The position numbers were made by a program, and so were the translations under genes. Shown one piece after another: positions 1 through 17,683 of a DNA stretch of 17,683 nucleotides. Below the pieces are notes generated by a model. It did no database searches, was not told where the DNA came from, and saw only the letters and a list, made by a program, of their open reading frames with translations. Numbering within the stretch: the stretch's first letter is position 1; the number at the start of each line of letters is the position of its first letter. Origin of the DNA: Caldisericota bacterium (lineage in GTDB: Bacteria; Caldisericota; Caldisericia; JAAYUI01); contig JAKPMO010000025.1 of the NCBI GenBank assembly GCA_029548865.1, positions 1 through 17,683 of the forward strand, in the 5' to 3' direction.

Positions 1-1671
1 AATATTTTTATAGGTAACTATACAAATATATCCTTCACCACAGTACATTACTTCGATTTCTCCACCACTTGCGCCGGTTGCATTTTTATCCCACCTGTAT
101 TTTGTTGTTATTTTTTCTGTTGCCGGATCAAGCATCTCGAGGGAGTATCCAGTGCCAAACAAACTGCTATTTGTGGAAACAAAATAAATTTTTCCGTCCA
201 TGTAGGTTGGAAGCATTGCATCTCCGCCATAAGAACTCAGCTTCAGACCCGTTTTTGGATCAAAACAGTGAAGGCTACTGCCACCAGTCCAGACAAGCCC
301 ATTGGCATAGGTCATAAATAGACTTACCCATTCAGACTTATTTGGTTGCCATGACCACAAGAGTTTTCCATCTGCAAGCGAAATGGCAAACAGGGACCCG
401 TTGATACAGAAAAATTCCTTGCCTTCCGCAATCATGGCATTGGTGACCGTTTTAAATTGAAAACCCAGTTTGTCGCGCACATTGGTGGAAGTCCAGATCC
501 TGCCTCCAGTTTCGAGGTCGTAGCAGTTTACACCGACAAAGTCGTAGTTTGCCGAAACAAGGTAGAGCCTCTTGTCCAGCATCATCATGTTGCCGCTCAA
601 GCCGAGGTTCTGCGCCCACTGGACAGAAAGGGCATTTGTTTCTGTGCCGTTTCCTTCTGGCACGGCATAACTCCTGTTGTGGTTTGAACCATTGTTTATC
701 CAGCCCTGAGTGAATGTCTGTTTTGGTTTTGCCTGTTCAAGCGGTCTTGTGTAGCCGATAACAGCAACCGGTGTCTTTTTGTTTTCCCATGCGGCTGTGA
801 CGTCGAAGTTATAGACCCCTCCAGGGGCAGGTGTTGGCTTTGTTGAAGAAACGTATATCTTTTTTGTGCCATTTGCCGGTATGGTGAACTTTGTTTCCGA
901 GAGCGATGCCCACGCCGCTTGCTCGGAGAGGTTTACGGCAAGCGGGAGCGGCGAGCAGTTGGCAAGTGTTATTTCAGATTTCCCATAGGATTCCAGCCAG
1001 CCAAGGATTACCGGGTTTGGCGTGATCTTCAGGCACATTTCGACAACCTTGACGGTGAGTGTCGCCTCCAGTCCCATGTAGCTTGCCCTTATCTGGCACA
1101 CTGTCGGTTTGTCGCTTGAGAATCCCAATCTGTTGGCCCCAGTTTCCTTGGTTGTCCCGCTGCAGGCGCTGCTCCACTGGACCCTTGCGTATGGGACATC
1201 CTTCCCGTTCTCGTCGCTAATTTTGCATGATATGTCTAGCTTTTGGCCCACCTTTATGGTCACCTCGCCTGATGGGGTGAGTTTCAGGTTTTTTTCAAGC
1301 TGAATCTCCTGGGCCATGTAGACCATGACCCTTGAGGTGGCAGTGGTGTTACCCCATCTAGCCGTTATTGTCGAGAAACCGTAATCTTTGGCGTTTACCA
1401 TGATTTGGGTGCCGGACGTTTTTTCGATTGAAACGGCATCGCCTTCGACAGACCATTCAATATCAGGCTGTGAAACTTTGTTTCCATTTTCATCGGTTGC
1501 GATGGCGTTCAGTTTTGCATTCTCGCCAAGATTGATGACCAGCTCACCTGGCTCGATTCTCAGGAATTTTTCTTGCGCCTTTGCACCACCAAAACTCCCA
1601 ATCACAAACAGAGCTGAAAGCATTATCAGTAATGAATCCTTAAAATATTTCAAAAATCTTTTGTTTTTCAT
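1..1671 (-). CDS. Secreted protein with tandem Ig-like (Big_2-type) domains followed by PQQ-like beta-propeller repeats; 3' end runs off the window (>=557 aa)
   Basis: Not in the ORF track because it has no stop in the window. Manual translation from ATG 1671 is open to base 1. It begins with a signal peptide MKNKRFLKYFKDSLLIMLSALFVIGSFGGAKA. Two Ig-like repeats follow (LRIEPGELVINLGENAKLNAIATDENG..IEWS / LKLTPSGEVTIKVGQKLDISCKISDENG..VQWS), then propeller motifs CYDLETGGRIW, AISLADGKLLW and CFDPKTG. Confidence 0.85.
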   Translation of the reverse strand, partial: MKNKRFLKYFKDSLLIMLSALFVIGSFGGAKAQEKFLRIEPGELVINLGENAKLNAIATDENGNKVSQPDIEWSVEGDAVSIEKTSGTQIMVNAKDYGFSTITARWGNTTATSRVMVYMAQEIQLEKNLKLTPSGEVTIKVGQKLDISCKISDENGKDVPYARVQWSSACSGTTKETGANRLGFSSDKPTVCQIRASYMGLEATLTVKVVEMCLKITPNPVILGWLESYGKSEITLANCSPLPLAVNLSEQAAWASLSETKFTIPANGTKKIYVSSTKPTPAPGGVYNFDVTAAWENKKTPVAVIGYTRPLEQAKPKQTFTQGWINNGSNHNRSYAVPEGNGTETNALSVQWAQNLGLSGNMMMLDKRLYLVSANYDFVGVNCYDLETGGRIWTSTNVRDKLGFQFKTVTNAMIAEGKEFFCINGSLFAISLADGKLLWSWQPNKSEWVSLFMTYANGLVWTGGSSLHCFDPKTGLKLSSYGGDAMLPTYMDGKIYFVSTNSSLFGTGYSLEMLDPATEKITTKYRWDKNATGASGGEIEVMYCGEGYICIVTYKNI

Positions 1672-1747
1672 TTTCTTCCAAATATAGAATACACGAAAAA
1701 CCTCTGTTTTGTTCTTATGTTTTTTAATACTTGCAAAGAGTGAACTT

Positions 1748-1784
1748 AAAACAAAAGCCCCGAGGCTTAATGGCCTCGGGGCTT
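1748..1784 (-). terminator. Rho-independent terminator of the 854-aa gene
   Basis: Perfect 12-bp stem AAGCCCCGAGGC (1755-1766) / GCCTCGGGGCTT (1773-1784) with a 6-nt loop. It is followed on the minus strand by TTGTTTT and lies 30 nt after the stop at 1815. Confidence 0.9.
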
Positions 1785-1814
1785 CAAACGCTCCAGTTAG
1801 TCAAAAAGTTGAGC

Positions 1815-4379
1815 TTATTTTACAGTTATCTTCCTCGTGATTGTCTTGGTCCTTGCGTAGGCATCCGTTGCCGTTATCGTGACCACATATTCGCCTGAGG
1901 TCCAGGAGTGCTTGAAGCTTGTTTCAGTGCTGCCATCAAGCGTGTTCATGTCATCTTTTCCATCACCCCAGTCAACTGTCACATCACATGGGAACTGTCC
2001 GCCTTCCACTTTGACGCCAAGTTCGAGTTCTTTCCCAGACTCAATCGTGCTGGCCTTCGTATCAAGCCCGTTCCATTTTGCGGTTATTGTGAAATCCGGG
2101 GAAGGAATTGCTTTTACATACAACATCGAGGCAGATGCTTTTGCACCTGTTATCTTGCCGGTATATGAGTTTGTGGCTGTACATGAGGTGTTATTTATCA
2201 CTGTCAGGCTGTTGCCAGGGAACTGGATGTTCTTGTTAAGCTTGAATGCAATCTCGAAAGTCCTTGTCTCGCCAACCTTAAGTCTTCCAATCTCAAATTT
2301 GACGCCATTGATGCCTTGCGCTCCAGTTGGCCTTGAAGTGTCGTAAACAAGCTCATTGGGGAAATTGTCGTAGAGAACAACATTTATGGCATCAACAGTC
2401 CCTGCGTTTGAAACGCTTATGTAGAACACTGCCTTTTCATCTACATTGCAAGTGGATTTTTTCACCCATTTACGCAACTGCAAATTGACTTCTCCAACGA
2501 TCTGGACTTCTCCCTGGGCAGGTTCTCCAGAAGGAGACTGGATGCTGACTGCTCTCAGGTCTGCTATGCCGATTATCTCGCCAGAGGTCAGAGTTGCGCT
2601 TGCCCCACCGCCGTTTATGAGCAGTATTGTAGAGGTACCTCCATTGATAAGACCAAGGTTTGTAGAAAGCTCAACTGTCAGGATACCGTCGAGAATGTCC
2701 GGTGAAACTGTTCCACCATCCAGATCACTGTGGAAATCTACCATTACTGGTGTTGAATATCCACCGACAACAATAGATGACGATAGTGCCCTGATCCTCA
2801 TCACAATCCATGGTCTGTATTTGATTCCTGAGGGCCCAATCGGGTCCCCATTACCAGGCCCAAATCCTGACGGGCCACTGTTCGATCCCCACCAGTTGCG
2901 CCTTGCGTCTATCTTGCTGGACTCATAGCCATACTGGGCAACATTGAGCACTTCATCAATATTCACGAGGGCAGCATTTGTGTTCCCACAGAAAATGCAG
3001 CTTTCAATTACTGCATCTGTTGGTTGCCACAGAGGGCCAGTGGTTGAGTTTGGATAACGCCTTCCGGAAATACCAATGCCATAGGTATTTGCGTAGCTTG
3101 AATATGGGGGATATGCGATCATATTGGAAAGGAATGCACAGCGTCTTACAACCAGACCTACCGTGCCTATTGCATTTAATCCATAAGAGCAATTACGAAC
3201 AATGGTGTCAATAATAGACACGTTGTAAACTGAGTTGTCAATATAAATGCCCCTTATGGAGTCCTGGATCACGCATCCTAATATGGTCACGCCGGTCAGT
3301 GTTGCTGGGTTGGCCGAATAAGCATTGTCAGACCTTCCCTTTATTCCCAGGGCCATGCCATTTATTGCGTGGGTGTTACCGCACCTTGTAAACACGCAAT
3401 TGTTGAAGAGGATGTTTGTAAAATCGCCATATTTCAGGTTTATATCGATTCCAAACGGGCTTCCATATCCTGGCCAGTAACCTGTATTGGTAATTGTCAG
3501 GGAGTCAAAAATTGCATTCGAGAGTTTCTCGAAATACATGGCCTTGTAAGACAGATTCTGATAAACACAGTTTCTTATAGTGAGATTGGTAAAATCGTTT
3601 ATTCTCATTGGGGGTGGTGGAAGATGCGGGGTGCAAACATAGAAGCCATACCCCATGTTGATGAAATTGCATCTTTCCACAAGGAAATTGTTACAGGCAA
3701 CACTCTGGCGTAATGCGTCATTTTTGAAAAAATATATGCCGGTGTTGATGTTATTTATCATATCACAATCAACAACAACCACATTTGCGGTGCTTGCGGT
3801 GTAGTCAAAGAACATGCCATAGCTGCAGCGGTAGATATAAAGGTTCCTGAAGGTAAGGTTGGAGGTCGCCATTGCGCTGTGAATGGCGTTGCCGTTGGTG
3901 GGCCTGTTGTTGGTTGTTATGGAGAGGTTCTCGATGGTGACATTGCCAGACTGGAGGATAAAAGCATGGCTTACCAAGGAGGTAATCACTGTATCCTGGG
4001 TTGGATCTGTCCCCTTTCCTGAACCAATTATTCTTATTGCTTTTGTAATGGTTAGACTCTCGCTGTATGCGCCAGGGGCCACGTAAATGGTCGCATTTGC
4101 GGAAGTTGCCGCAAATGCCGCATTGATTGTTGGGAATGCATCAGTCCCTATAGTGTGGGGGTCCGGATCGCCAGGGAAGGTGACATTGGTTCCAGGTGGA
4201 AATAAAATAGGATCAGCCCAGTCGTCATCAACGCACGTATCGGGCAGACTAAAAGTGATCTGCAGATCTGCGCTTGAAGTTTTCGGTCCCTTATCAGCTG
4301 GTACAGCAGCGTATATGGGAGAGGATAGGAAAAGTAGAGCAATAACAAATATAGCCATAAGGCCATTTTTTCTCATCAT
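1815..4379 (-). CDS. Secreted right-handed parallel beta-helix (pectin-lyase-like fold) protein with C-terminal Ig-like, DUF11 and PKD-like domains
   Basis: Signal peptide, SD AAGGAGG. The beta-helix start motif FPTINAAF..TIYVAPGAYSESLTITKAIRIIG is followed by Asn/Ile-rich PbH1-like coils and the cap IDARRNWWGSNSGP. DUF11-like motif LQLRKWV..FYISVSNAGTVDAINVVLYDNFP; PKD-like VDWGDG..HSWTSGEYVVTITATD. Confidence 0.85.
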   Translation of the reverse strand: MMRKNGLMAIFVIALLFLSSPIYAAVPADKGPKTSSADLQITFSLPDTCVDDDWADPILFPPGTNVTFPGDPDPHTIGTDAFPTINAAFAATSANATIYVAPGAYSESLTITKAIRIIGSGKGTDPTQDTVITSLVSHAFILQSGNVTIENLSITTNNRPTNGNAIHSAMATSNLTFRNLYIYRCSYGMFFDYTASTANVVVVDCDMINNINTGIYFFKNDALRQSVACNNFLVERCNFINMGYGFYVCTPHLPPPPMRINDFTNLTIRNCVYQNLSYKAMYFEKLSNAIFDSLTITNTGYWPGYGSPFGIDINLKYGDFTNILFNNCVFTRCGNTHAINGMALGIKGRSDNAYSANPATLTGVTILGCVIQDSIRGIYIDNSVYNVSIIDTIVRNCSYGLNAIGTVGLVVRRCAFLSNMIAYPPYSSYANTYGIGISGRRYPNSTTGPLWQPTDAVIESCIFCGNTNAALVNIDEVLNVAQYGYESSKIDARRNWWGSNSGPSGFGPGNGDPIGPSGIKYRPWIVMRIRALSSSIVVGGYSTPVMVDFHSDLDGGTVSPDILDGILTVELSTNLGLINGGTSTILLINGGGASATLTSGEIIGIADLRAVSIQSPSGEPAQGEVQIVGEVNLQLRKWVKKSTCNVDEKAVFYISVSNAGTVDAINVVLYDNFPNELVYDTSRPTGAQGINGVKFEIGRLKVGETRTFEIAFKLNKNIQFPGNSLTVINNTSCTATNSYTGKITGAKASASMLYVKAIPSPDFTITAKWNGLDTKASTIESGKELELGVKVEGGQFPCDVTVDWGDGKDDMNTLDGSTETSFKHSWTSGEYVVTITATDAYARTKTITRKITVK

Positions 4380-4767
4380 GTCCTCCTTAGAAGATGAAAT
4401 ACAAAAATAAATAAATCCACCTTCTTATTAGAGAAAATTTATAATGTATATTAAGGTAATAATCAATTATTAATTATTTTATAATGTAATAAAATTGTAA
4501 ACAACCGGGGTTGGCAAGCTTATGTTTCATCTATATTTAACGATAAACATTTAACCCCGTTGATGGCGTTCCTAACAAGAGATGTCGTGCGTAAAATATT
4601 TTATGAAGTTGTGTGAAACCACAAACAATACGATAATATTTTATATCATTATATCATTATATGATTATATGGAATATATTTATTATTTCTTGAGTCCTCT
4701 CTGATAATTTCAATAAGTAGAATAATTATTAGGGATTGGTATAAAATCATTAAAACCAGAATTTGTT

Positions 4768-5160
4768 TTAATCAAACGCTTTCCATACAGATATAACAAA
4801 ATACAGGGCTGAAATAAACAGCGGAATGCCGGTTATTGTTCCTGCCCCAGGGCCTGCAAAATAATTTCCGGTTGCAATCCAGCCGATGGAATGCACGAAG
4901 AAATTTAATATTCCAGAAGCTATGGCGATTATGAATGCAAGCTTCTTCCCGAGCGGTCTTCCAAGCGCCATGAGCACCATGGCCAGACCTGAAGCCAGCA
5001 CAACCATTGATGCTGCAATCAGGTAATTTTCAAGCCTGTGGAATGGCAAGATAGGTATTTCATAAGTTCTGCCCCAGATTTCCTCAAAAATGTGGAGCAC
5101 CTGGAATGTAAAAAAGACAGCATAGATAGCCATCAGTTTATTTTCATTCGTTTTTGTCAT
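4768..5160 (-). CDS. HXXEE-domain membrane protein (~130 aa)
   Basis: The LHIFEE motif follows the first hydrophobic helix, and there are about four TM segments. Start taken at ATG 5160, which overlaps the rarA 3' end by 17 nt. The track's 5232 start overlaps rarA by 89 nt and is less likely. Confidence 0.75.
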   Translation of the reverse strand: MTKTNENKLMAIYAVFFTFQVLHIFEEIWGRTYEIPILPFHRLENYLIAASMVVLASGLAMVLMALGRPLGKKLAFIIAIASGILNFFVHSIGWIATGNYFAGPGAGTITGIPLFISALYFVISVWKAFD

Positions 5161-6400
5161 CTTTTTCAACCTGCCCCCTGGATTCCATCCGCTCCTTGAT
5201 GCGTTTTTCAAAGCCGATGTCTGTTGGCTCAAAAAATTTCGAATCCAGCAGCTCTTTTGGTAGATATTCTTGTTTCACAAACCCACTTTTGTGGTCGTGT
5301 GGATATTTGTAGTCTCTGCCCCAGCCAAGGTTTTTCAGTCCCCTGAAATTAGCGTTCCTGAGATGGATTGGCACCGGCGGAGTTGTTTTCTCGACCGTTT
5401 CCTGTGCGGCCCAGAGCGCCCTGGCCGTGCTGTTGCTTTTTGGGGCCTGCGCCAGGTACACAGCCACCTCGGACAGGATCAACCCGCATTCCGGGATGCC
5501 TATCTGTTCGACGGCCGAAAATCCTGATTGGGCAATCAGCAATGCCCATGGATCTGCAAGCCCGATGTCCTCTGCGGCCAGAATGACGAGTCTCCTTGCA
5601 ATGAAGGTCGGATCTTCCCCGGACTTCAGCATCCTTGAAAGCCAGTAGACGGCCGCATCTGGGTCTGAGCCCCTGATACACTTTATAAAGGCTGATATGA
5701 CCTGATAGTGCTCATCACCTGTCTTGTCATACGGCAATCTTCGCAAAACATCTTCTGATGGTATCTGAAGGGTATATTTGCCATCCACAGGAACCGAGAG
5801 ATTGAAAAGGTCTTCCAGAAGGTTGAGCGCCGACCTCGCATCTCCTGCCGACACCTGGGCGACAAAGTCCATCACCTCTTCTGGCATTTCTATGGTAAAC
5901 TCACCGAGGCCCTTTGGATCGATGATTGCTTTTTTGAGGATTTCCTTTATGTCCTCGTCGGAGAGTGGCTCCAGCCTCAGCACCCTGAGCCTTGAGAGGA
6001 GCGGGCCAATTACCTCGTAGTAAGGGTTTTCTGTTGTGGAGCCGACGAGCAGGACTTCGCCAGACTCGACAAAGGGGAGCAGAAAGTCCTGCTGGGACTT
6101 TGACCATCTGTGGATCTCGTCCACAAAAAGGACAGGGTGGTCGGCCTGCGCAAGCAGTTTTTTCAGGTCTGGAATGCCTGTTGTTACAGCATTGATGACA
6201 ATCGTTTGCCTTGATGTCGCTTTCCCGATCAGGTGCGCAAGTGTGGTTTTACCTGTTCCGGGTGGCCCCCACAGCAAAAGCGAAGTTGGCTTGCCCGACA
6301 GGGATTTTGAGAGCAGGCCGTCTTTTCCGAGCAGATGCTTCTGGCCAACAAATTCTTCTATCGTTTGTGGCCTCATCCTGTAAGCAAGCGGTTCTGACAT
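5144..6400 (-). CDS. rarA: Replication-associated recombination protein A (RarA/MgsA AAA+ ATPase)
   Basis: N-terminal PLAYRMRP, Walker A GPPGTGKTT, Walker B region FVDEIHR, STTENPY, and MgsA C-terminal motifs YDKTGDEHY..ISAFIKCIRGSDPDAA, EDIGLADP, PKSNS and YKYPHD. Confidence 0.96.
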   Translation of the reverse strand: MSEPLAYRMRPQTIEEFVGQKHLLGKDGLLSKSLSGKPTSLLLWGPPGTGKTTLAHLIGKATSRQTIVINAVTTGIPDLKKLLAQADHPVLFVDEIHRWSKSQQDFLLPFVESGEVLLVGSTTENPYYEVIGPLLSRLRVLRLEPLSDEDIKEILKKAIIDPKGLGEFTIEMPEEVMDFVAQVSAGDARSALNLLEDLFNLSVPVDGKYTLQIPSEDVLRRLPYDKTGDEHYQVISAFIKCIRGSDPDAAVYWLSRMLKSGEDPTFIARRLVILAAEDIGLADPWALLIAQSGFSAVEQIGIPECGLILSEVAVYLAQAPKSNSTARALWAAQETVEKTTPPVPIHLRNANFRGLKNLGWGRDYKYPHDHKSGFVKQEYLPKELLDSKFFEPTDIGFEKRIKERMESRGQVEKDDKNE

Positions 6401-6406
6401 GCGGCA

Positions 6407-6435
6407 ATTGTATTGGACAAACCGGTATTTTTCAA
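6407..6435 (-). promoter_or_regulatory. Sigma70-type promoter of rarA, probably giving a leaderless mRNA
   Basis: Minus strand reads TTGAAA-17 nt-TACAAT, then 6 nt (TGCCGC), then the ATG. No Shine-Dalgarno is present. Confidence 0.7.
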
Positions 6436-6455
6436 CACTTGCCAGAGCGCCCGTC

Positions 6456-6483
6456 TTGACAACCTTGAGAATACGCCTAGAAT
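6456..6483 (+). promoter_or_regulatory. Sigma70-type promoter of the leader/RIO kinase operon
   Basis: TTGACA (6456-6461), 16-nt spacer, TAGAAT (6478-6483). Divergent from the rarA promoter. Confidence 0.8.
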
Positions 6484-6519
6484 CACCTCAAAACAAATTC
6501 CGCCAAAGGAGGTGCGATG

Positions 6520-6576
6520 ATGAGAGTGAGAAACAATAACAACAATGCGCATCTTTTGGGCGGAGCCTCAGTCTAA
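6520..6576 (+). CDS. Attenuator leader peptide MRVRNNNNNAHLLGGASV (18 aa; 19 aa if started at ATG 6517)
   Basis: Strong SD AAGGAGGTG at 6506-6514, with GGAGG 7 nt before ATG 6520. Five consecutive Asn codons (6532-6546). TAA at 6574-6576 lies 27 nt before the terminator stem. Confidence 0.8.
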   Translation: MRVRNNNNNAHLLGGASV

Positions 6577-6603
6577 GCAATACCAAACCATAAAATAAAC
6601 TAG

Positions 6604-6636
6604 AAGGCCCGTTCAAAACAGGGAACGGGCCTTTTT
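6604..6636 (+). terminator. Attenuator terminator 1
   Basis: Perfect 11-bp stem AAGGCCCGTTC / GAACGGGCCTT with an 8-nt loop, ending in a T5 run followed by AATT. It lies upstream of the first structural gene. Confidence 0.85.
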
Positions 6637-6642
6637 AATTCC

Positions 6643-6679
6643 AGGGCCCCAGCGCACAAAAAGGCAAAGGGGCCTTTTT
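6643..6679 (+). terminator. Second, weaker terminator-like hairpin in the same leader
   Basis: AGGGCCCC (6643-6650) pairs with GGGGCCTT (6669-6676) around a large A-rich loop, with a T5 tract. Its 3' end GGGCCTTTTTAATT (6670-6683) is an exact 14-nt repeat of 6627-6640. Confidence 0.55.
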
Positions 6680-6703
6680 AATTTCCCGCAAAGGAGGAAC
6701 ACA

Positions 6704-6847
6704 ATGACCACGCTATTTGACAAGCTCGCACAAGCACTCACACCGGCCGTCGTCCGCGCATACAAGATAAAGCTCGAACGATACGAGGGCGGGAAAGTGT
6801 CAGCGGCTGGAAAAGCCGATCAAACAAATGAAGAAGGGAGGCATTAA
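6704..6847 (+). CDS. 47-aa small protein of unknown function (MTTLFDKLAQALTPAVVRAYKIKLERYEGGKVSAAGKADQTNEEGRH)
   Basis: SD AAGGAGG at 6691-6697, 6 nt before the ATG. First ORF after the attenuator. Its 3' end contains the SD of the next ORF. Too short for the ORF track. Confidence 0.7.
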   Translation: MTTLFDKLAQALTPAVVRAYKIKLERYEGGKVSAAGKADQTNEEGRH

Positions 6848-6850
6848 TTT

Positions 6851-6979
6851 ATGAAAAATGGCAAAGGATTCAAAGTTATGAAGTTGACGCAGATAAAACC
6901 AAAGATGACACCAAAAATAACGGTGCCAAAAGCAAAAAATTCCAAGGAGGAGTTTTGGAAGAAAAAATCTCCAAAATGA
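6851..6979 (+). CDS. 42-aa lysine-rich basic small protein (MKNGKGFKVMKLTQIKPKMTPKITVPKAKNSKEEFWKKKSPK)
   Basis: SD GGGAGG at 6836-6841. Starts 3 nt after the previous stop, and its TGA overlaps the ATG of the RIO kinase (ATGA at 6976-6979). 14 of 42 residues are Lys. Confidence 0.65.
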   Translation: MKNGKGFKVMKLTQIKPKMTPKITVPKAKNSKEEFWKKKSPK

Positions 6980-7800
6980 AGACAAGCCACGAGTCGGACG
7001 CTTCAGTCCGGCTCTGGCTCGAAAGAAAGGCCATCAGGACTGGTGAATTTGACCCAGATTTCCTGAGAGAGAGCCACCTGCGCGAGTGGATACTGCCTTC
7101 ACTGACTGCTTTCAAACAGCAGGGGCTGATCGAAGACGTGATTATGGAAGTCTCATCGGGCAAGGAGGCGACAGTCTACAGTTGCCTGGGGACAAAAAAG
7201 TCAGGGTTCCCGCTCCTTGCGGCCAAGGTTTACAGGCCAAGGATCTTCCGGAGCCTGAGCAATGATGCCCTCTACAGGGAGGGCAGGTGGGTTTCCCAGA
7301 AAAGCGTGCAAAGGGCCATAAACAGGAGGTCCACGATGGGCCACCAGTTCATGTTCGAGCGGTGGATTGAGGACGAATTCAGCGTCCAGAGGCTCCTCTG
7401 GAACAATGGCGTTGATGTCCCGAAGCCAATTGCGATTAAGGGCAACACAATACTCATGGAATACATCGGTGATGAGAACGGGCCAGCACCGCTTTTGAGG
7501 AAAGTGAAAATTCCAGACAAGGACATGGACAGGGCATTCAGGCGGATGCTGACAAACATCAGGAACATGCTCGGGCTCAATGTTGTCCACGGCGATCTTT
7601 CCGCATTCAACGTGCTATGGTGGGGCGGGAAGGCGATCATCATAGACATGGCGCAAGCCGTTGACCCAAGGTCAAACCCCAATGCCGAGTTGTTCTTCAA
7701 AAGGGACATGGCAATCCTGGGGCGCCACTTCAAGAGGGAGGAAGAGGCAAGGGAAATTGCCGATTCGCTCTGGCTGGAGTGGGAGACCGGGAAGATTTGA
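6976..7800 (+). CDS. RIO1-family atypical serine kinase/ATPase (bacterial type)
   Basis: RIO motifs SSGKEATVY (P-loop), AAKVYR, VPKPI, LMEYIG, catalytic loop HGDLSAFNVL and metal-binding IIDMAQAV. An alternative start at TTG 6955 has an SD only 4 nt away, so ATG 6976 is favoured by the ATGA coupling. Confidence 0.92.
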   Translation: MKTSHESDASVRLWLERKAIRTGEFDPDFLRESHLREWILPSLTAFKQQGLIEDVIMEVSSGKEATVYSCLGTKKSGFPLLAAKVYRPRIFRSLSNDALYREGRWVSQKSVQRAINRRSTMGHQFMFERWIEDEFSVQRLLWNNGVDVPKPIAIKGNTILMEYIGDENGPAPLLRKVKIPDKDMDRAFRRMLTNIRNMLGLNVVHGDLSAFNVLWWGGKAIIIDMAQAVDPRSNPNAELFFKRDMAILGRHFKREEEAREIADSLWLEWETGKI

Positions 7801-7809
7801 GGAAAACAT

Positions 7810-7839
7810 CCAGGGTCCCTCACAAAGCAGGGGCCCTGG
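7810..7839 (+). other. Intercistronic GC-rich hairpin without a U-tract
   Basis: 11-bp stem CCAGGGTCCCT / AGGGGCCCTGG (one U-G pair) with loop CACAAAGC, between the RIO kinase and GNAT genes. Confidence 0.6.
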
Positions 7840-7877
7840 TCTACTCGAAAATTGATGAAAACAACATGGGAGACAAA

Positions 7878-8909
7878 ATGAACATTCAAATCAGAAAAGT
7901 TGAAAACGAAGAGTTAAGGACAACATTGTTTTTGCAGTACAAAGCGCATGCAACCATGATGCTCCACGAGGCGGAGCCTGAAATGAAACCGATATCGGAC
8001 GAGATGGCGATGCAGTGGCTTGATGACAAGTATGAAGTATCCATAAGAAATTATGCCTTTGAAGGCGAGAAAATTGTTGGCGATGCGGAAATATATTTAA
8101 GAAAACCGGATGATCCAGAATATGAACTGAACAAAGGTCTTGGTTATATATTTGGTTATGTGGAGCCCAAATATAGGAACAGAGGCATTGGTACAAGTTT
8201 GGCCAAAAAAGCTTTTCTGGACATCAAAGACAGTTGTGTCCACACGATTAGCTCACACTCTTATTCGGAAGAGGGCAACAGGTTTCTTCAAAAATTTGGT
8301 GTGCCTTCCTCGGTTTTTTCTGACATGAGGCTCGAGCTTGACGGGTTTGACTGGAACATTGTTGACGGATGGCTTAAGATTGCAGAAAAATCTGAAAACA
8401 ACTGGAAAATTGAACTGCACACCAAAATAACGGACCAGTTTATCGATGATGTCAGCGACCTGTCTTTCGCCACAGCGGTTGAATTCAAGAAAATGAACAA
8501 CCAGGAAACAATAGACCTGAGGGAGGCAGAGAAAAAGAAGTGGCAGGATTCCAAGGAGTTTCTTGAAAAATTCAGGCAGTATCGCTGTTTTCTGGTCAAA
8601 GATGCAAACGGGGTGGTCATCGGCTTTACCGAGGGTGGCATCGACAATGAAAACACTTACAGATTCATACAGTATGTGACAGCTGTTGATGCAGGACATC
8701 GCGGAAGCGGCATTGGCAAACTGCTCAAGGCCCTGATGCTCGACCACATCAGGCAGAACAATCCCCAGGTCAAGATGATCACAACAGGCAACAATGATCT
8801 GAATGCCCCGATGCTTGGGATTAACTCCAGACTGGGTTTCAAAAAACACAAGACCCAAATCAGCTACAAGATTTGTGTTGAGGAGGCTTTGAAGAGGTTG
8901 GGAATATAA
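7878..8909 (+). CDS. Tandem (two-domain) GNAT family N-acetyltransferase, ~343 aa
   Basis: Two acetyl-CoA binding motif A copies (VEPKYRNRGIGTSL and VDAGHRGSGIGKLLK) and C-terminal TGNNDLNAPMLGINSRLGF. Start set at ATG 7878 with SD GGGAG at 7868-7872. The track's start at 7779 overlaps the kinase gene. Confidence 0.88.
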   Translation: MNIQIRKVENEELRTTLFLQYKAHATMMLHEAEPEMKPISDEMAMQWLDDKYEVSIRNYAFEGEKIVGDAEIYLRKPDDPEYELNKGLGYIFGYVEPKYRNRGIGTSLAKKAFLDIKDSCVHTISSHSYSEEGNRFLQKFGVPSSVFSDMRLELDGFDWNIVDGWLKIAEKSENNWKIELHTKITDQFIDDVSDLSFATAVEFKKMNNQETIDLREAEKKKWQDSKEFLEKFRQYRCFLVKDANGVVIGFTEGGIDNENTYRFIQYVTAVDAGHRGSGIGKLLKALMLDHIRQNNPQVKMITTGNNDLNAPMLGINSRLGFKKHKTQISYKICVEEALKRLGI

Positions 8910-8945
8910 AATTGTAGTTTTTTCTAGAGATTAGATAGAATTGAG

Positions 8946-8984
8946 AAAAAATATGCCCCTGAGTGATAAACTTGGGGGCATTTC
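8946..8984. terminator. Probable bidirectional terminator between the convergent GNAT and orphan genes
   Basis: Stem ATGCCCCTGAG (8953-8963) / CTTGGGGGCAT (8971-8981), flanked by A6 on the left and a short T run on the right. Confidence 0.7.
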
Positions 8985-8996
8985 AAGCTCAACGTT

Positions 8997-9326
8997 TTAT
9001 TTCCCCTTTTGTTCTTGAATTAATTTTTCAATTTTATCTGCAATAGCGTTTGATTGCTCAAAATTGTATGTTATGAGGTTCGGATTATTGTAATCAGGTA
9101 AATTCCTTATTTGTGTTGCAAGCCTTGATACCCGTGAATCATCTGGCTCTAAACCAACAAGGCTATAAAGTAATTCCAGCACAGGTTGCATACCTGACCC
9201 GCCGCATACCCCTTTATAGACAGGGATTCTAGCTCTCTTCAAGGTTTCCATAAAAGCAAATGCCGATACTCCACCATCTTCAACAATTTTCACCAATTTA
9301 TCAAAGAATTCCTTGTTTGTTTTCAA
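8997..9326 (-). CDS. Hypothetical protein, 109 aa
   Basis: TTG start with SD AGGAGG 6 nt upstream, its own consensus promoter and a terminator. No family recognised. Confidence 0.75.
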   Translation of the reverse strand: MKTNKEFFDKLVKIVEDGGVSAFAFMETLKRARIPVYKGVCGGSGMQPVLELLYSLVGLEPDDSRVSRLATQIRNLPDYNNPNLITYNFEQSNAIADKIEKLIQEQKGK

Positions 9327-9387
9327 TGTTGTCCTCCTAATATTTTGTATTAATTTATTCCATATTCCCTTGGGGATTTATGAAAAC

Positions 9388-9415
9388 ATTATATCATAAA
9401 ATATAATTTTGTCAA
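9388..9415 (-). promoter_or_regulatory. Consensus sigma70 promoter of the 109-aa gene
   Basis: Minus strand reads TTGACA-16 nt-TATAAT with an extended -10 TG (TGATATAAT). Confidence 0.8.
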
Positions 9416-9493
9416 GTAGCTAAAATAACACAATAAGGCGCATCTGATAGGTAGAACACTCTAATTATACAAATAATATGAGTATTCTCATTT

Positions 9494-10528
9494 TTACACT
9501 TTTTCGGTCTTCAAATACTCCACCAGCAATTTCGAAGTGGCCTCGATTGCGTCCTTGTGGGTGCGCTCCATCGAATGGCTGGCCTGAACACCCGGCCCGA
9601 TGAGGCCGGCCCTCAGGTCATGGCCGCCGTGGAGGGCCGCAGATGCATCGCTCCCGTAGAACGGGTAGATGTCCACCGCGTATTTGATTTTGTTTGCTTT
9701 TGCAAGGTCGACCAGCTGGTTTGTCAGGGCGTAGTCGTAGGGGCCGGAAGAGTCCTTGGCGCAGATCGAGACGCAGTATTCGTCGGTTGAGAGGTCGAGC
9801 CCGATTGCGCCCATGTCCACGGCCAGGATTTCGTTGGCCTCTGGGACAAAGCTTGCGCCATGGCCGACTTCTTCGTAGTTGGTTATGATTGCCGTGAAGG
9901 GGTGTGCTGGCGTTATTTTTTCCTCGGAGATTGCCTGAAGGGCACAAAAAATACAGGCCGTTCCAGCCTTGTCGTCCAGATGTCTGGTTTTTATGAAGCC
10001 AGATTCTGTGACGATTGTCCTTGGGTCCCAGGCTATGAAATCTCCTGCCGAGATGCCCAGTTTTTCGGTGTCTTCCTTGGAACAGACGCGCTCGTCGAGC
10101 CTTATCACCATGTTCTCGGGTTTTCTCTCGAGTTCCCTGGCGTTTGGGTGGACGTGCACCGAAGGGTCGGTTGTCAGGCATGTTCCGGTGTAGGTTTTCC
10201 CGCTCCTTGTGAAAATCTGGCAGTACTCGCCTTCCACTGTCTGCATCATGTAGCCGCCGATTGGCGTAAATTTCAGCCAGCCGTTTGAATCTATGGAGCG
10301 CACCATTGCGCCGAGGGTGTCAACATGGCCGGAGACGAGCCTCCTGAAGGACGCGTCCTTGCCGGGAACATCAACCAGCAGCCCACCCTTGTTGTTTCTT
10401 CTTGTTGCAAACCCGAGCGATCTTGCCTCGCGCTCGCACCTGTCTATTGCCGCCATGGCAAAGCCTGTCGGGCTTGGGGTCTTGCAGATCTCTTCAAGAA
10501 ATTTTACCGCGTAGTCAATGTTTGCCAT
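9494..10528 (-). CDS. M42 family metallo-aminopeptidase
   Basis: TPSPTG N-terminus and metal-ligand motifs GHVDTLG, RHLDDKAG, YEEVG, AVDM and SHSMERTH. SD GAGGTG. Confidence 0.92.
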   Translation of the reverse strand: MANIDYAVKFLEEICKTPSPTGFAMAAIDRCEREARSLGFATRRNNKGGLLVDVPGKDASFRRLVSGHVDTLGAMVRSIDSNGWLKFTPIGGYMMQTVEGEYCQIFTRSGKTYTGTCLTTDPSVHVHPNARELERKPENMVIRLDERVCSKEDTEKLGISAGDFIAWDPRTIVTESGFIKTRHLDDKAGTACIFCALQAISEEKITPAHPFTAIITNYEEVGHGASFVPEANEILAVDMGAIGLDLSTDEYCVSICAKDSSGPYDYALTNQLVDLAKANKIKYAVDIYPFYGSDASAALHGGHDLRAGLIGPGVQASHSMERTHKDAIEATSKLLVEYLKTEKV

Positions 10529-10573
10529 GTTTCACCTCTTTTGTCTGCCAATTCTATCATTGCCGGTGGAAAC

Positions 10574-10606
10574 AAAAAAGGGCGACCTTTTGGGCCGCCC
10601 TTTTTT
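10574..10606 (-). terminator. Rho-independent terminator after the 578-aa protease gene (symmetric, potentially bidirectional)
   Basis: AAAAAAGGGCGACC-loop-GGCCGCCCTTTTTT. The single mismatch on the plus strand is a G-U pair on the minus strand. Confidence 0.85.
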
Positions 10607-10624
10607 CGATGACTGGTGAGTCAA

Positions 10625-12361
10625 TCAAATTTTTGACTTGTAGTTTTTTGACATCATGAGGAAATCCATGAGGTCGACCTTCTGGTCGTTGTTGAAGTCT
10701 GCATCCTTGTAGTAGTTTGGGTCGCCAAGCGAGCTGTTGAAGTACTTCGCAAACAGTTCGACATCTGCATCGTCCACGACCCCGTCGAGGTTTACATCTC
10801 CCGGGATCGGGGCCACGTCAACAACTACCTTCACCCTTCCGGTGCCGGCGTTGCCGTCGTATTTGATGTATCCACTGTTGAAGCCGTACTTGAGTGAAGC
10901 CGTATTAATTGTTACATTTATCGGCTCTTCATTGCCAATAAAGCTTGTTCTGTCAATGTTGATCCATTGGGAGTCAGACTTGAGCATTGCCTGGAGTTTT
11001 TTTGGGCCGATGTTGTAGAATGTGAGGTCCTGGCTGGCCATTTCACCTTTGACTACCCTTCCGAAAGACAGGGTGTCCAGCACTTGCATGATTGGAACCT
11101 GTGGGGTGTCATAGCTTAGCCTGAAGGTCATCTTTTCACCGACTGAAGAGATCTTGTCAATCCTCAAAGTCTTTTTGGAGTCGTTTTTCTCATATGGCAG
11201 AGTGTTGGGTATCGAGTCGGCGCTGATGGCGACTTTTCCATAGTTGTCCCCGTACATTGCTGTTTTGTGGAGTGGTGATCCACCTGGATCAAGAACCTCT
11301 ATGCCAACAGTTTTCCACTCTTTTGTTCTTGTGTTGAAAAGATGTTTGTACTCTCTGCGATCATCGACATGGTAAACAATCATGCCATTTCCGGGACAAC
11401 CCTGGAAATAGCCATCTCCTCCGTGCCTTTGCCTATTTTCAACAAGAAGCCACTCGACATCGGAGCCTGGAAGCGGGATTTTGTACATTTTGTGTGGGCC
11501 ATCACCATTCAGGTCATCGACTTCATAAGTCCCTGGCTCGGTGATTGTTTCTGGTTCTATCCAGTTGGCTTTCCATCTCTGGTAGGAGTTGATCCCGCAA
11601 TATCCGTCCCATACACCTGCGGCCATGAGGTCCCAGCCACCAACGGGGTCAGATGTGTATGAATAATCATACAGATCGTAAAGTTCGCCCATTGCATGGA
11701 AATATTCGTGAAGGAGTGTAATCAACGGAAAACCACCAACTCTGACATCTTCGCCAATGCTTATGATGTTGCCTATTTCCATTGGCATTGTGAAATCCCC
11801 AGGCTTGTCTCCACCTACAGTGTAGGAATTGCCGGCCCAAATAACTATTGTCAGATCAGGGAACCCGTTCCCATCCTCATCGTATTCGAGTGGGTCGATG
11901 CCATATTTTATTGCTGTTGCAAAGGCATCATTGAAGAGGGAGTCCATGTCTTCATAATCATTGTATGGTTTTGGCATCATCATCCACTCTGGAATGCCTT
12001 TTTCACCGTAGGTTGGCCTGTATTTGCCATACGAGGATATCTCGTAAAAATTGAGGAGGCTTCTTTGAGTCTGTGAGATGAATTTTTCCCTTATACTGCC
12101 TGCGGCAATGGTCCATCTGCAATCGGGGAATTCCATTGGGAGAACAAGGACCTTTTGGTCACCAAGATGTTTCGTTGGCCTTATGGTCGAGTGCACCATT
12201 GATGGCGGTATTTTCCCACCATTCGACATGGCGATGTTTTTTACCTTGGAAAGTGGCATTTTCATGATGTCACAGGTTGTGTCACACTCTGAAGCTTTGG
12301 CAACAATCCATATCGGTGAAACCAAAGACAGGATCAGCGCGAAAGTCAATAATTTTTTCAT
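10625..12361 (-). CDS. Secreted M6 (immune inhibitor A-like) metalloprotease with an Ig-like/BACON-type domain and C-terminal dockerin-like domain
   Basis: Signal peptide; KVLVLPMEFPD; zinc motif HEYFHAMGELYDLYD; Met-turn VGGWDLMAAG; LVENRQ; IVYHVD. The C-terminus has duplicated Ca-binding loops GDVNLDGVVDDAD / ADFNNDQKVDLMD. Confidence 0.88.
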   Translation of the reverse strand: MKKLLTFALILSLVSPIWIVAKASECDTTCDIMKMPLSKVKNIAMSNGGKIPPSMVHSTIRPTKHLGDQKVLVLPMEFPDCRWTIAAGSIREKFISQTQRSLLNFYEISSYGKYRPTYGEKGIPEWMMMPKPYNDYEDMDSLFNDAFATAIKYGIDPLEYDEDGNGFPDLTIVIWAGNSYTVGGDKPGDFTMPMEIGNIISIGEDVRVGGFPLITLLHEYFHAMGELYDLYDYSYTSDPVGGWDLMAAGVWDGYCGINSYQRWKANWIEPETITEPGTYEVDDLNGDGPHKMYKIPLPGSDVEWLLVENRQRHGGDGYFQGCPGNGMIVYHVDDRREYKHLFNTRTKEWKTVGIEVLDPGGSPLHKTAMYGDNYGKVAISADSIPNTLPYEKNDSKKTLRIDKISSVGEKMTFRLSYDTPQVPIMQVLDTLSFGRVVKGEMASQDLTFYNIGPKKLQAMLKSDSQWINIDRTSFIGNEEPINVTINTASLKYGFNSGYIKYDGNAGTGRVKVVVDVAPIPGDVNLDGVVDDADVELFAKYFNSSLGDPNYYKDADFNNDQKVDLMDFLMMSKNYKSKI

Positions 12362-12370
12362 TTACAAACT

Positions 12371-12398
12371 AGAATACCACGGGTTGATGGCATGTAAA
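12371..12398 (-). promoter_or_regulatory. Putative promoter of the 578-aa protease (near-leaderless)
   Basis: TTTACA-16 nt-TATTCT with TG extension, 9 nt upstream of the ATG. No SD. Confidence 0.55.
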
Positions 12399-12502
12399 CA
12401 AAAAGACAAAACCTGAAAGAAGCGTGTTTTTATCTAAATGATCACGCTTACCCCCCTAGTACTTTTTAAGAATTGATTAGAATGGTTTAACTATTGTAAA
12501 TA

Positions 12503-14221
12503 TTACTTTCTGCCAATATTTCTCGCAAGGAGCATTAAGTCCAACCAATCAATAATTCCATCTTTGTTTAGGTCAGCCTCCTTCTTGTACCCCTCTTGAC
12601 CTTCGCTTTTTCCAAAGCAAGCAACCAATTCGTCAAAATCTTTTTCGTCAACTTTTTGGTCAAGATTGATGTCACCCATTATAGGCACCACCTCAACCGA
12701 AACGATAACTTTTCCTAACGTTGATGAGCAATTGAATGATATTTGACCTTTGTTTATTCCATAGGGGAGTTGTGACGTATCAATAGTCACGATGATGGCT
12801 TCATCATTGCCAATAAAGCTTGTTCTGTCGAGAGTTATCCATTTGCAGTCGGTTTTCAGGAAAGCCTGGAGTTTTCCTGCACCAGCATTTGTAAATTTGA
12901 GTTCCTGTGTTTTAGTGGTACCTTTTTCAACCTGGTCAAAAGGCAATTGTTCGTTTACTCTGACAAGTGGGATCTGTGGACTTTCAAATGTGACCTTGAA
13001 AGTCATTTTGGATCCTACATTTGAAATATCGCTTATGCAGAGAGTTTCTCTGGAGCTATTTGTAACATATGGCAGGGTGTTCGGAATGGTGGTACCGCTA
13101 ATTTTTGTTTTTCCGATATCAGCCCCAAAATTGGCGGTTTTGTGCAAAGGGGCACCACCAGGATCAAGAATGACAATTCCAGGCGTGCTCCATTCTGAGG
13201 TGATGGTGTTGAATCTTCCTCCATACGGCCTCCTATCGTCTACATGATACATTACAATGCCATTTCCTGGACAACCATTGTAGTATCCGTCTGCCCCATG
13301 TTTTTGCCTGTTTTCTACAAGTACCCATTCATCTATTGATCCGGGTATCTGGATTTTGTATGCTTTGTGTTCCCCATCCCCGTTAAGATCATCAATCTCA
13401 TAGGTGCCGGGTTCTGTTATTGTTTCTATATCGACCCAGCCAGCATTAAAACGACTGAAAGATGACATTCCCCAATAATTTTCCTCAAGACCAGATCCCA
13501 TGAGGTCCCAGCCCCCAACCGGATCAACTATGTGTGAATAATCATAGAGATCGTAAAGTCCGCCCATCCCGTGAAAGAATTCGTGTAGTGTTGTTCCAAG
13601 TGGGAAGCCTCCTTCACGTATGTTCTCACCAATGCTTATGAGTGGAAATGGAACGTCGCCGCGATAGAAATCCCCTGGGACGCTCTTCGTCCCGTCTCCA
13701 TAGCTGTTCCCGGCCCAGATGAAGATTGTCAGGTCCGGGTAGCCATTCCCATCTTCATCATATTCCTCGATTTTGAGCCCTTTTTCCTGTGCAGCTTTGT
13801 ATGCGTCTGGTCCCATGCTTAAAACCATTACATAGTCCGGAACTTCCATTTGATTGTATTCTTCTATTGTTTTTGGCATTTTTATCCAGTCATGCAGGAA
13901 AAATGAGCCAAAATCAATTTTGAGTTTTCCGCCTGAGGCAGTGTCAAAGTAGTTTTTAAGGCTTTTTACCTTGTCAGAAACGAATTTCTCCTCGGCGCTC
14001 TTATAGGTCATGACACCTTTTTGGTCAGGAAACTCCATCAGAAGCACCAAAACTTTTTGCACCCCAACGCTCTTTATTGCGGAAGCAGGTTTGAGTGGAT
14101 GGGCCAGTTTTGGCAGCTGGGGAGGCTGTTTTGAGGTTGCGGATTCTGGCGGCAACCAGTAATTAGAAGCAAGCATGAAAGACAGAAAAACCATCAATGA
14201 TATTTTCGTTTTCTCCCACAT
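12503..14221 (-). CDS. Secreted M6-like metalloprotease with C-terminal dockerin-like domain (tandem paralog)
   Basis: Colinear with 10625-12361: KVLVLLMEFPD, HEFFHGMGGLYDLYD, VGGWDLMGSG, LVENRQ, and GDINLDQKVDEKD / ADLNKDGIIDWLD. Confidence 0.88.
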   Translation of the reverse strand: MWEKTKISLMVFLSFMLASNYWLPPESATSKQPPQLPKLAHPLKPASAIKSVGVQKVLVLLMEFPDQKGVMTYKSAEEKFVSDKVKSLKNYFDTASGGKLKIDFGSFFLHDWIKMPKTIEEYNQMEVPDYVMVLSMGPDAYKAAQEKGLKIEEYDEDGNGYPDLTIFIWAGNSYGDGTKSVPGDFYRGDVPFPLISIGENIREGGFPLGTTLHEFFHGMGGLYDLYDYSHIVDPVGGWDLMGSGLEENYWGMSSFSRFNAGWVDIETITEPGTYEIDDLNGDGEHKAYKIQIPGSIDEWVLVENRQKHGADGYYNGCPGNGIVMYHVDDRRPYGGRFNTITSEWSTPGIVILDPGGAPLHKTANFGADIGKTKISGTTIPNTLPYVTNSSRETLCISDISNVGSKMTFKVTFESPQIPLVRVNEQLPFDQVEKGTTKTQELKFTNAGAGKLQAFLKTDCKWITLDRTSFIGNDEAIIVTIDTSQLPYGINKGQISFNCSSTLGKVIVSVEVVPIMGDINLDQKVDEKDFDELVACFGKSEGQEGYKKEADLNKDGIIDWLDLMLLARNIGRK

Positions 14222-14614
14222 AACTCCAATTTACCCCTTGGGCGTTTTTTTGAAAACCAATGATTGTTAAGTCAATTTGTCGAAAATAACAAATATACAG
14301 GTCGAAGGTAACTGAAAAAACTGGATAAAATGCTTCTGGAAAAGAAAAAATCATTTTTTATCAATTTCTGGTAAATACCGAAAAAATAATACATTAAATT
14401 ATTCTAAATAAATATATCTAAAATATTAAAACATTCATTGGGTCTATATTATTCATATAGATAATGAATATTATATATAATAACCTTCACATAAATCTGA
14501 TTTAATACGTATTATTTATATGATTAAACATTGAAAAAATATAAAAAAATAGTTGACAAAAATTACTATATTCAATGATATGGTTAAAGATTTTAATTTA
14601 TATATGGAGGAGTT

Positions 14615-17600: not shown

Positions 17601-17683
17601 ACATCGTGTGGTCGGATGCATCTTACCTGAATGAAGAAATCATGTATGTGAAGTGGGACCAATCGATCATGAACTGGGTGGGT
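14615..17683 (+). CDS. Very large secreted repeat protein (7-repeat beta-propeller, DUF11-like domain, Gly/Asp linker, second DUF11-like domain, second propeller), interrupted by one in-frame TAG at 15929-15931; 3' end beyond the window. Either readthrough or a pseudogene.
   Basis: SD GGAGGAG, signal peptide, and ~60-aa repeats W(V/A)GANGSxY..N(V/I)SxN...S..PxLxLDS...PHIVW....EIMYxxW. Manual translation after the TAG is open for 584 codons to the window end and continues the same repeat (YTNTNSNVSKNKGSSLFPCLALDSSDAPHIVWED). Confidence 0.85.

Follow-up and report, generated by a model that had tools for sequence, protein, structure and literature searches.

Introduction

The classical attenuators of Escherichia coli, such as those of trp, his, thr and phe, follow a 1:2/2:3/3:4 helix logic and repeat codons of a single type upstream of segment 2. 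RIO kinases bind and remodel the small ribosomal subunit in archaea and eukaryotes, and their role in bacteria is little understood. The subject here is a leader that precedes a RIO1-family kinase gene in a 17,683-nucleotide (nt) stretch of DNA from a Caldisericota bacterium (assembly GCA_029548865.1, contig JAKPMO010000025.1, positions 1 to 17,683, forward strand; hereafter the window), and that hints at service of the kinase to stressed ribosomes. A bacterial RIO1-like protein, PA4780, is named as predicted in PMC11197903, in a passage that gives it no function.

A close described counterpart of this leader is that of Bacillus subtilis vmlR, in which a uORF (upstream open reading frame) lies inside an anti-antiterminator hairpin and stalling lets an antiterminator pre-empt the terminator (PMC9226507); the same text reports that vmlR is also induced by defects in ribosome assembly. 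In the tested cases, genes behind uORF attenuators of this kind are answers to stalled ribosomes. The window leader has the features of the vmlR, cplR and whiB7 type, namely a uORF led by a Shine-Dalgarno (SD) sequence, two predicted terminators (T1 and T2) before the first gene, and mutually exclusive antiterminator and anti-antiterminator helices. It contains four mutually exclusive helices and a uORF, these are conserved, and the same layout stands before many distant RIO genes. The leader is real and conserved, and we consider it probable, at roughly 70%, that it is an attenuator of the vmlR/whiB7 type that is sensed by the ribosome, being ON upon early stalling and OFF upon full translation or no translation. 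No RIO attenuator and no attenuator based on asparagine (Asn) codons was found in the literature covered, subscription papers and bioRxiv supplements lying outside that coverage, and the term RIO is absent from 10 supplementary files that accompany the WblC regulon paper (PMC7157823), where genes labelled hypothetical could hide it.

Organization of the leader

The elements of the leader are as follows.

6456..6483, + strand: sigma70-type promoter, with -35 at 6456-6461, a 16-nt spacer and -10 at 6478-6483, matching 11 of 12 consensus positions
6498..6516, + strand: segment 1, the 5' arm of the protector (anti-antiterminator) helix as given by folding, which includes the uORF SD
6520..6576, + strand: leader uORF of 18 codons, its SD lying 7 nt before it; a start at the in-frame ATG of 6517 would give 19 aa
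6532..6546, + strand: codons 5-9 of the uORF, all five Asn, which lie in the helix 1:2 loop and within the ON window that is predicted; invariant in congeners
6546..6568, + strand: segment 2, whose partner is segment 1 in the OFF state and the T1 5' arm in the ON state
6554-6568 with 6605-6618, + strand: antiterminator of 14 standard pairs and one bulge, with a duplex energy of -19.0 kcal/mol
6604..6636, + strand: intrinsic terminator T1, with an 11-13 bp stem (6604-6633) and a U-run (z -5.06, 0/200 shuffles)
6627..6649, + strand: relay helix of the T1 3' arm (6627-6633) with the T2 5' arm (6643-6649), -10.8 kcal/mol, formed only when T1 is open
6643..6679, + strand: second intrinsic terminator T2, between T1 and the first gene, with a stem (6643-6676) plus U-run; weaker (6/200 shuffles)

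The initial annotation had proposed a consensus promoter, an SD-equipped 18-aa uORF, a protector helix (6499-6516 with 6548-6564), a terminator ahead of the first gene and a uORF segment complementary to the 5' arm of that terminator, and each of these was recovered, the protector helix as 6498-6516 with 6546-6565 (-19.1 kcal/mol), where it buries the SD of the uORF itself. What did not hold is that one terminator makes up the whole switch, since T2 had been overlooked. The promoter, from which a transcription start near 6490 was inferred, is the weakest part, as 5.5 such hits are expected by chance in the 4.5 kb scanned. The structural elements stand out more clearly from their background: the fold of 6490-6600 was bettered by just 9 of 1000 shuffles, the leader as a whole has a folding z of -4.44, and a duplex as strong as the antiterminator arose in 2 of 2000 shuffles and in 4 of 3000 windows drawn at random from the genome. 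Eight sites (10 rows) were flagged among 232 SD-led small ORFs of the genome and, by judgement, the RIO leader is the sole convincing case of a uORF followed by a terminator and a gene.

According to the folding, the antiterminator excludes the terminator and the anti-antiterminator excludes the antiterminator. When the antiterminator was forced, the relay helix reached a probability of 0.95 and T2 fell to 0.0; the freed 3' arm of T1 captures the 5' arm of T2 and therefore one event can open both terminators. The ends of T1 and T2 form a 27-nt repeat, and the SD regions of the uORF (6495-6512) and of the first gene, ORF1 (6680-6697), form an 18-nt direct repeat (83%). Given these repeats, the leader may have grown through duplication. 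A gene for a RarA/MgsA AAA+ ATPase (5144-6400, - strand) diverges from the leader, the two having a short promoter region in common.

Predicted response to ribosome position

The effect of a ribosome on the leader was examined by a footprint scan in which the transcript was made to 6618, everything under or behind the ribosome was blocked, and footprint edges of +12, +14 and +17 were used. The antiterminator had a probability of 0.93 with the P-site at codons 1 to 6-8 and of zero by codons 11-13, the ranges reflecting the three footprint edges. The attenuator logic and its direction, in which an early stall frees segment 2 and turns the operon on, had been put forward in the initial annotation and are backed by this footprint folding, by the conservation in congeners and by the recurrence before distant RIO genes.

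The switch would operate as follows. With no ribosome, segments 1 and 2 would pair and transcription would stop at T1, with T2 as backup, while a ribosome running through the uORF would cover segment 2 and T1 would again form. Were a ribosome to stall anywhere from codon 1 to about codon 8-9, it would cover segment 1 and leave segment 2 free, and in a kinetic step the free segment 2 would then capture the whole 5' arm of T1 plus part of its loop ahead of synthesis of the 3' arm. The 3' arm of T1, left unpaired, would in turn capture the 5' arm of T2, such that ORF1, ORF2, the RIO gene and probably the GNAT gene would be transcribed. What the switch senses is most likely general early stalling, as caused by drugs that arrest ribosomes just after initiation or by faulty ribosomes, with a shortage of Asn-tRNA as a probable added sensitivity in this genus. 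The kinase would be the conserved target, most likely acting on the small subunit like its archaeal and eukaryotic relatives, and the GNAT would be a local recruit. The link of the leader to ribosome stress is an inference.

Conservation of the leader within the genus

The closest relatives of the RIO protein are in three Caldisericia congeners (94-96% identity), and all of the leader elements are kept in all three. Across the four genomes 15 of 217 leader positions vary and just three of these touch helices. Both promoter hexamers are invariant in all three congeners and the spacer varies; all pairs of helix 1:2 are kept, with one change from C-G to U-G; the T1 stem is invariant, its single change lying in the loop; and G6644A, found in two of the three, converts G-U to A-U in both the relay helix and T2. 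The frame, start and stop of the uORF are likewise kept in all three, with no synonymous change on 36 summed sites as against a proportion of synonymous differences (pS) of 0.22 in the RIO gene, these comparisons not being independent.

Among the 93 phylum genomes the RIO1 domain is confined to 4, which all belong to the genus of the window, and the next relatives are at most 49% identical; gain of the RIO gene by transfer is the simplest reading, and a quick tree names no donor. A back-translated pattern of the leader had no match in viral contigs and, among the 93 genomes of the phylum, matched its own genus only. There are no intermediate homologs for a covariation test, as the protein search falls from 95% straight to 49% identity.

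Leaders before distant RIO genes

A fixed detector, which calls an SD-led uORF of 10-32 codons with a terminator within 110 nt, was applied to 65 of 79 metagenome RIO loci (14 with short flanks were omitted), to 9 of 48 non-congener genome loci and to the window; among the genome loci, those of archaea and Patescibacteria were omitted, and four loci were dropped as short or identical. Of the 70 distant RIO loci, near-duplicates (L103/L106 and L146/L151/L156) included, 29 gave a positive call, versus 4 of 124 other genes. When only SD-led genes that stand first in their unit are compared, the figures are 18 of 32 for RIO and 3 of 52 for matched controls (Fisher p 3e-7, inflated by kinship), and this enrichment ties the leader to the kinase. 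In 16 of these 29 detected leaders the distance from the start of the uORF to the pairing segment is 31-45 nt (33-36 in the window), and 13 of the 29 have a second terminator.

Ten distant leaders were picked by eye, most of them having Ala-Pro-Pro in segment 2; their SD, segment 2 and terminator arm align with those of the window. In these ten the SD pairs with segment 2 in 62/70 cells, the antiterminator in 77/95 and T1 in 85/90. With the window row added, antiterminator cells pair in 80% versus 73% when shuffled (2 of 500 shuffles as good), a figure that relatedness and selection inflate. Segment 2 of the window fits its own T1 arm best among 11 arms (-20.9 versus a mean of -11.4), and one core antiterminator pair, with a bulge allowed for, is C-G (or U-G) in most of the picked leaders and G-C in the window. 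Common descent with compensation would fit both the swapped pair and the best match to its own arm, the homology of the distant leaders being unproven.

In the RIO clade nearest the window, an SD-uORF of 17-20 codons recurs 430-640 nt upstream of the RIO match (at L097, L102, L105, L108, L109, L119 and L120). No U-run terminator was detected with these far-upstream uORFs, which could perhaps represent a translational version of the switch.

Evidence against the switch and alternative explanations

Several observations weigh against a ribosome-sensed attenuator. As soon as its 3' arm has been made, T1 is favoured over the antiterminator at equilibrium (-20.3 versus -15.8) wherever the ribosome stands, and therefore the switch has to work kinetically. 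Both stems use a terminator motif that is common in the genome, and the relay may be a by-product of this. The antiterminator end pair is broken in two of the three congeners, which show no compensatory double change (they are 96% alike), and the pairing signal in the hand-picked distant leaders is modest. Counting the window, 30 leaders were detected, and the duplex outdoes shuffles at p<0.05 in just 6 of them; in the clade nearest the window none of 16 tested loci passes the detector, 11 of them having a short SD-uORF. Action of the kinase on the small subunit is proposed by analogy with its archaeal and eukaryotic relatives. Finally, the RNA data are contigs, which cannot reveal 3' ends or induction: RNA-library contigs from four sludge metatranscriptome studies cover parts of 6671-9370, one spanning 6671-7996, and none covers 6419-6670, but such contigs show no ends, strand, level or single transcript, and neither the gap nor the depths were used.

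Some of these observations would be expected if the hairpins were constitutive. The leader would then yield a short RNA that ends at a terminator, or a peptide; leaky read-through or an internal promoter that escaped notice would serve the genes, and the complementarity would be incidental. T1 does win at equilibrium, both stems resemble ordinary terminators of this genome, and RNA contigs of the operon body come from four sludge metatranscriptomes with no known stress. This explanation is nevertheless distinctly improbable: the antiterminator duplex beats chance, the layout is about tenfold enriched before RIO genes, and no promoter-like site was found by the promoter scan on the + strand between 6484 and 8361.

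There is a very slight chance that it is not an elongating ribosome that reads the switch, and that the switch responds instead to the rate of initiation at the buried SD, to an RNA-binding protein (ORF2 perhaps, or the kinase itself as feedback) or to temperature. Burial of the uORF SD in helix 1:2 means that ribosome loading competes with folding, the DNA of ORF1 is oddly constant (pS 0.04 versus 0.19-0.26 in its neighbours) and the ORF2 product is very basic; against such a sensor, the frame, length and position of the uORF relative to segment 2 recur in distant loci, and Rfam covariance models gave no match in the window at the gathering threshold.

The asparagine codon run

The five tandem Asn codons, which the initial annotation did not remark upon, make up most of the predicted ON window (codons 1-8/9). 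Among 426 SD-led gene starts of the genome, none has a run of five Asn codons, or four Asn, within codons 2-10. It is thus pertinent to ask if the leader is a classical Asn-specific attenuator, in which the codons are a selected sensor and the operon answers a shortage of Asn-tRNA and not general stalling. The run mixes AAC and AAT, as well as being placed, like that of a classical amino-acid attenuator, to free segment 2 upon a stall, and in the genome (93% complete) asparaginyl-tRNA synthetase and GatB are present, AsnA is absent and Asn synthase has just a weak partial match. Moreover, the composition of the uORF sets the amino-acid response of whiB7 (PMC10274678).

An Asn-specific attenuator is nonetheless unlikely. 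The downstream genes (RIO1, GNAT and two unknown ORFs) have no evident link to Asn metabolism, and genes that make, import or charge the amino acid, which a classical attenuator would regulate, are not found among them. Codons rich in A and C also keep the loop of helix 1:2 unpaired. Four near-identical genomes cannot show selection for Asn. The peptides of the distant leaders differ in other respects, and each of the 29 has two Asn at most (by eye), which speaks for a sensor of position rather than of an amino acid.

Genes of the operon and their surroundings

Downstream of the leader lie the following features.

6704..6847, + strand: small ORF1, 47 aa, with a strong SD (pN/pS 0.79 on 14 differences, pN being the nonsynonymous proportion); protein function doubtful
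6851..6979, + strand: small ORF2, 42 aa, Lys-rich (pN/pS 0.34), which looks coding
6976..7800, + strand: RIO1-family kinase/ATPase (PF01163, 115 bits, cut-off 22), with an alternative TTG start at 6955
7810..7839, no strand assigned: 11-bp hairpin between RIO and GNAT, with no U-run on the + strand and a U-rich tail on the - strand
7878..8909, + strand: tandem GNAT acetyltransferase, 343 aa, with two GNAT stretches confirmed (pN/pS 0.20)

The two microproteins proposed in the initial annotation fared differently, as ORF2 looks coding and the protein-coding status of ORF1 is doubtful. Among 1.84 billion representatives ORF1 has one close match and one weak, repeat-like match, and no relative outside the genus; that it is a structured RNA was rejected (z -0.1, no compensatory pair). 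ORF2 has no match in Pfam, NCBIfam or the Atlas. Both look restricted to the genus, and small ORFs at the position of ORF2 occur in several distant RIO loci. The ORF2 stop overlaps the RIO start at 6976, making translational coupling likely; a programmed frameshift from ORF2 into RIO was dropped, as no canonical slippery site was seen by eye and close homologs start where 6976 lies. The P-loop, Lys, catalytic and metal-binding motifs of the kinase are intact in the alignment (pN/pS 0.11), and its best solved relatives are Rio1, RIOK1 and RIOK3 (PDB 1zp9, 4otp, 6g5i).

The GNAT has Orf14 (2wpw, E 4e-12) as its best solved relative. With NCBIfam models of the named antibiotic-acetylating GNATs (AAC, Sat, ArsN) and MshD, its best score was 34.8 bits versus a cut-off of 163 (MshD), all others being below 30 bits, and it resembles no named resistance enzyme. 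The GNAT is a paralog found throughout the family: all 10 of the other family genomes have matches, frequently as tandem arrays, and no such leader was seen at 20 GNAT homolog loci inspected elsewhere in the family. Other genera of the family have arrays of 4-6 tandem-GNAT paralogs (L066/L078/L089, G007:C26:148221-152411; L069/L084, G010:C1:37044-43252). A survey of genes after distant RIOs (79 of 98 called ORFs, 62 loci, no control) gave MFS at seven loci, GNAT at five, ABC at three, RsgA at one and APH at one, and the five GNATs are at best 20-23% alike to that of the window. The RsgA-type gene, for a small-subunit GTPase, stands after a RIO gene (L091:4209-5252). Hence the proposed four-gene module stands as to its RIO1 and double GNAT genes, and not as a conserved module, given the leaderless GNAT homologs elsewhere, the GNAT after just 5 of 62 distant RIOs and the genus-restricted small ORFs.

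A promoter with a 12/12 match and TG (9415-9388, - strand) drives a 109-aa gene of no known family (8997-9326, - strand) towards the GNAT gene, and RNA contigs extend from about 9370 into GNAT; antisense read-through over the whole GNAT gene is possible. Farther on, 10625-12361 and 12503-14221 (- strand) encode adjacent paralogous secreted proteins with an HExxH motif (by eye), which we take to be zinc-metalloprotease-like, with C-terminal dockerin-like repeats.

Significance

The layout stands before about half of the scorable distant RIO genes, so that the inducers and the action of the kinase on the 30S subunit become directly testable, and in its design the leader is unusual for chaining two terminators and for its run of Asn codons. 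The t6A and queuosine modifications of tRNA are linked to the reading of such codons. It is possible, rather than probable, that this RIO subfamily constitutes an undescribed ribosome-stress response that crosses phyla, in which a leader attenuator is released by early stalling and the kinase then acts on the 30S subunit like Rio1; in this genus the sensor would have been retuned by five Asn codons, eight of the first nine uORF codons beginning with A, into an Asn-codon attenuator, and may also report lost tRNA modifications.

Comparison with known systems

The trp, his, thr and phe leaders of E. coli have the helix logic and the codon run in common with the window leader, which differs in that its genes have no part in making the amino acid that is repeated and a second terminator follows. 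Its target has the domain and catalytic motifs of Rio1/RIOK1 and of the bacterial PA4780 family of RIO1-like kinases (NF041645), and falls short of the cut-off of the latter (147.3 bits versus 350).

Among the uORF attenuators, that of vmlR is alike in its uORF within an anti-antiterminator hairpin and in stall-driven antitermination (PMC9226507), but its uORF has 3 codons and its target is an ABC-F protein, whereas here 18 codons encode the switching strand, two terminators are chained and the target is a RIO kinase. In the Clostridioides cplR leader a 5' hairpin sequesters the uORF, as here, and the start-codon mutant is OFF with or without drug, the state also predicted for the window leader; cplR differs in its 3-codon uORF, its terminator that also hides the main SD, and its ABC-F target (PMC10201436). 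The whiB7/wblC leaders resemble that of the window in that a uORF-gated terminator senses general translation stress and amino-acid composition tunes the response, and they differ in their longer, Ala-rich uORF, in their transcription-factor target and in the start-loss mutant, which raised expression there while helix 1:2 predicts OFF here (PMC10274678). The switch is of a known kind, and what is new is its RIO target, the double-terminator relay and the Asn run.

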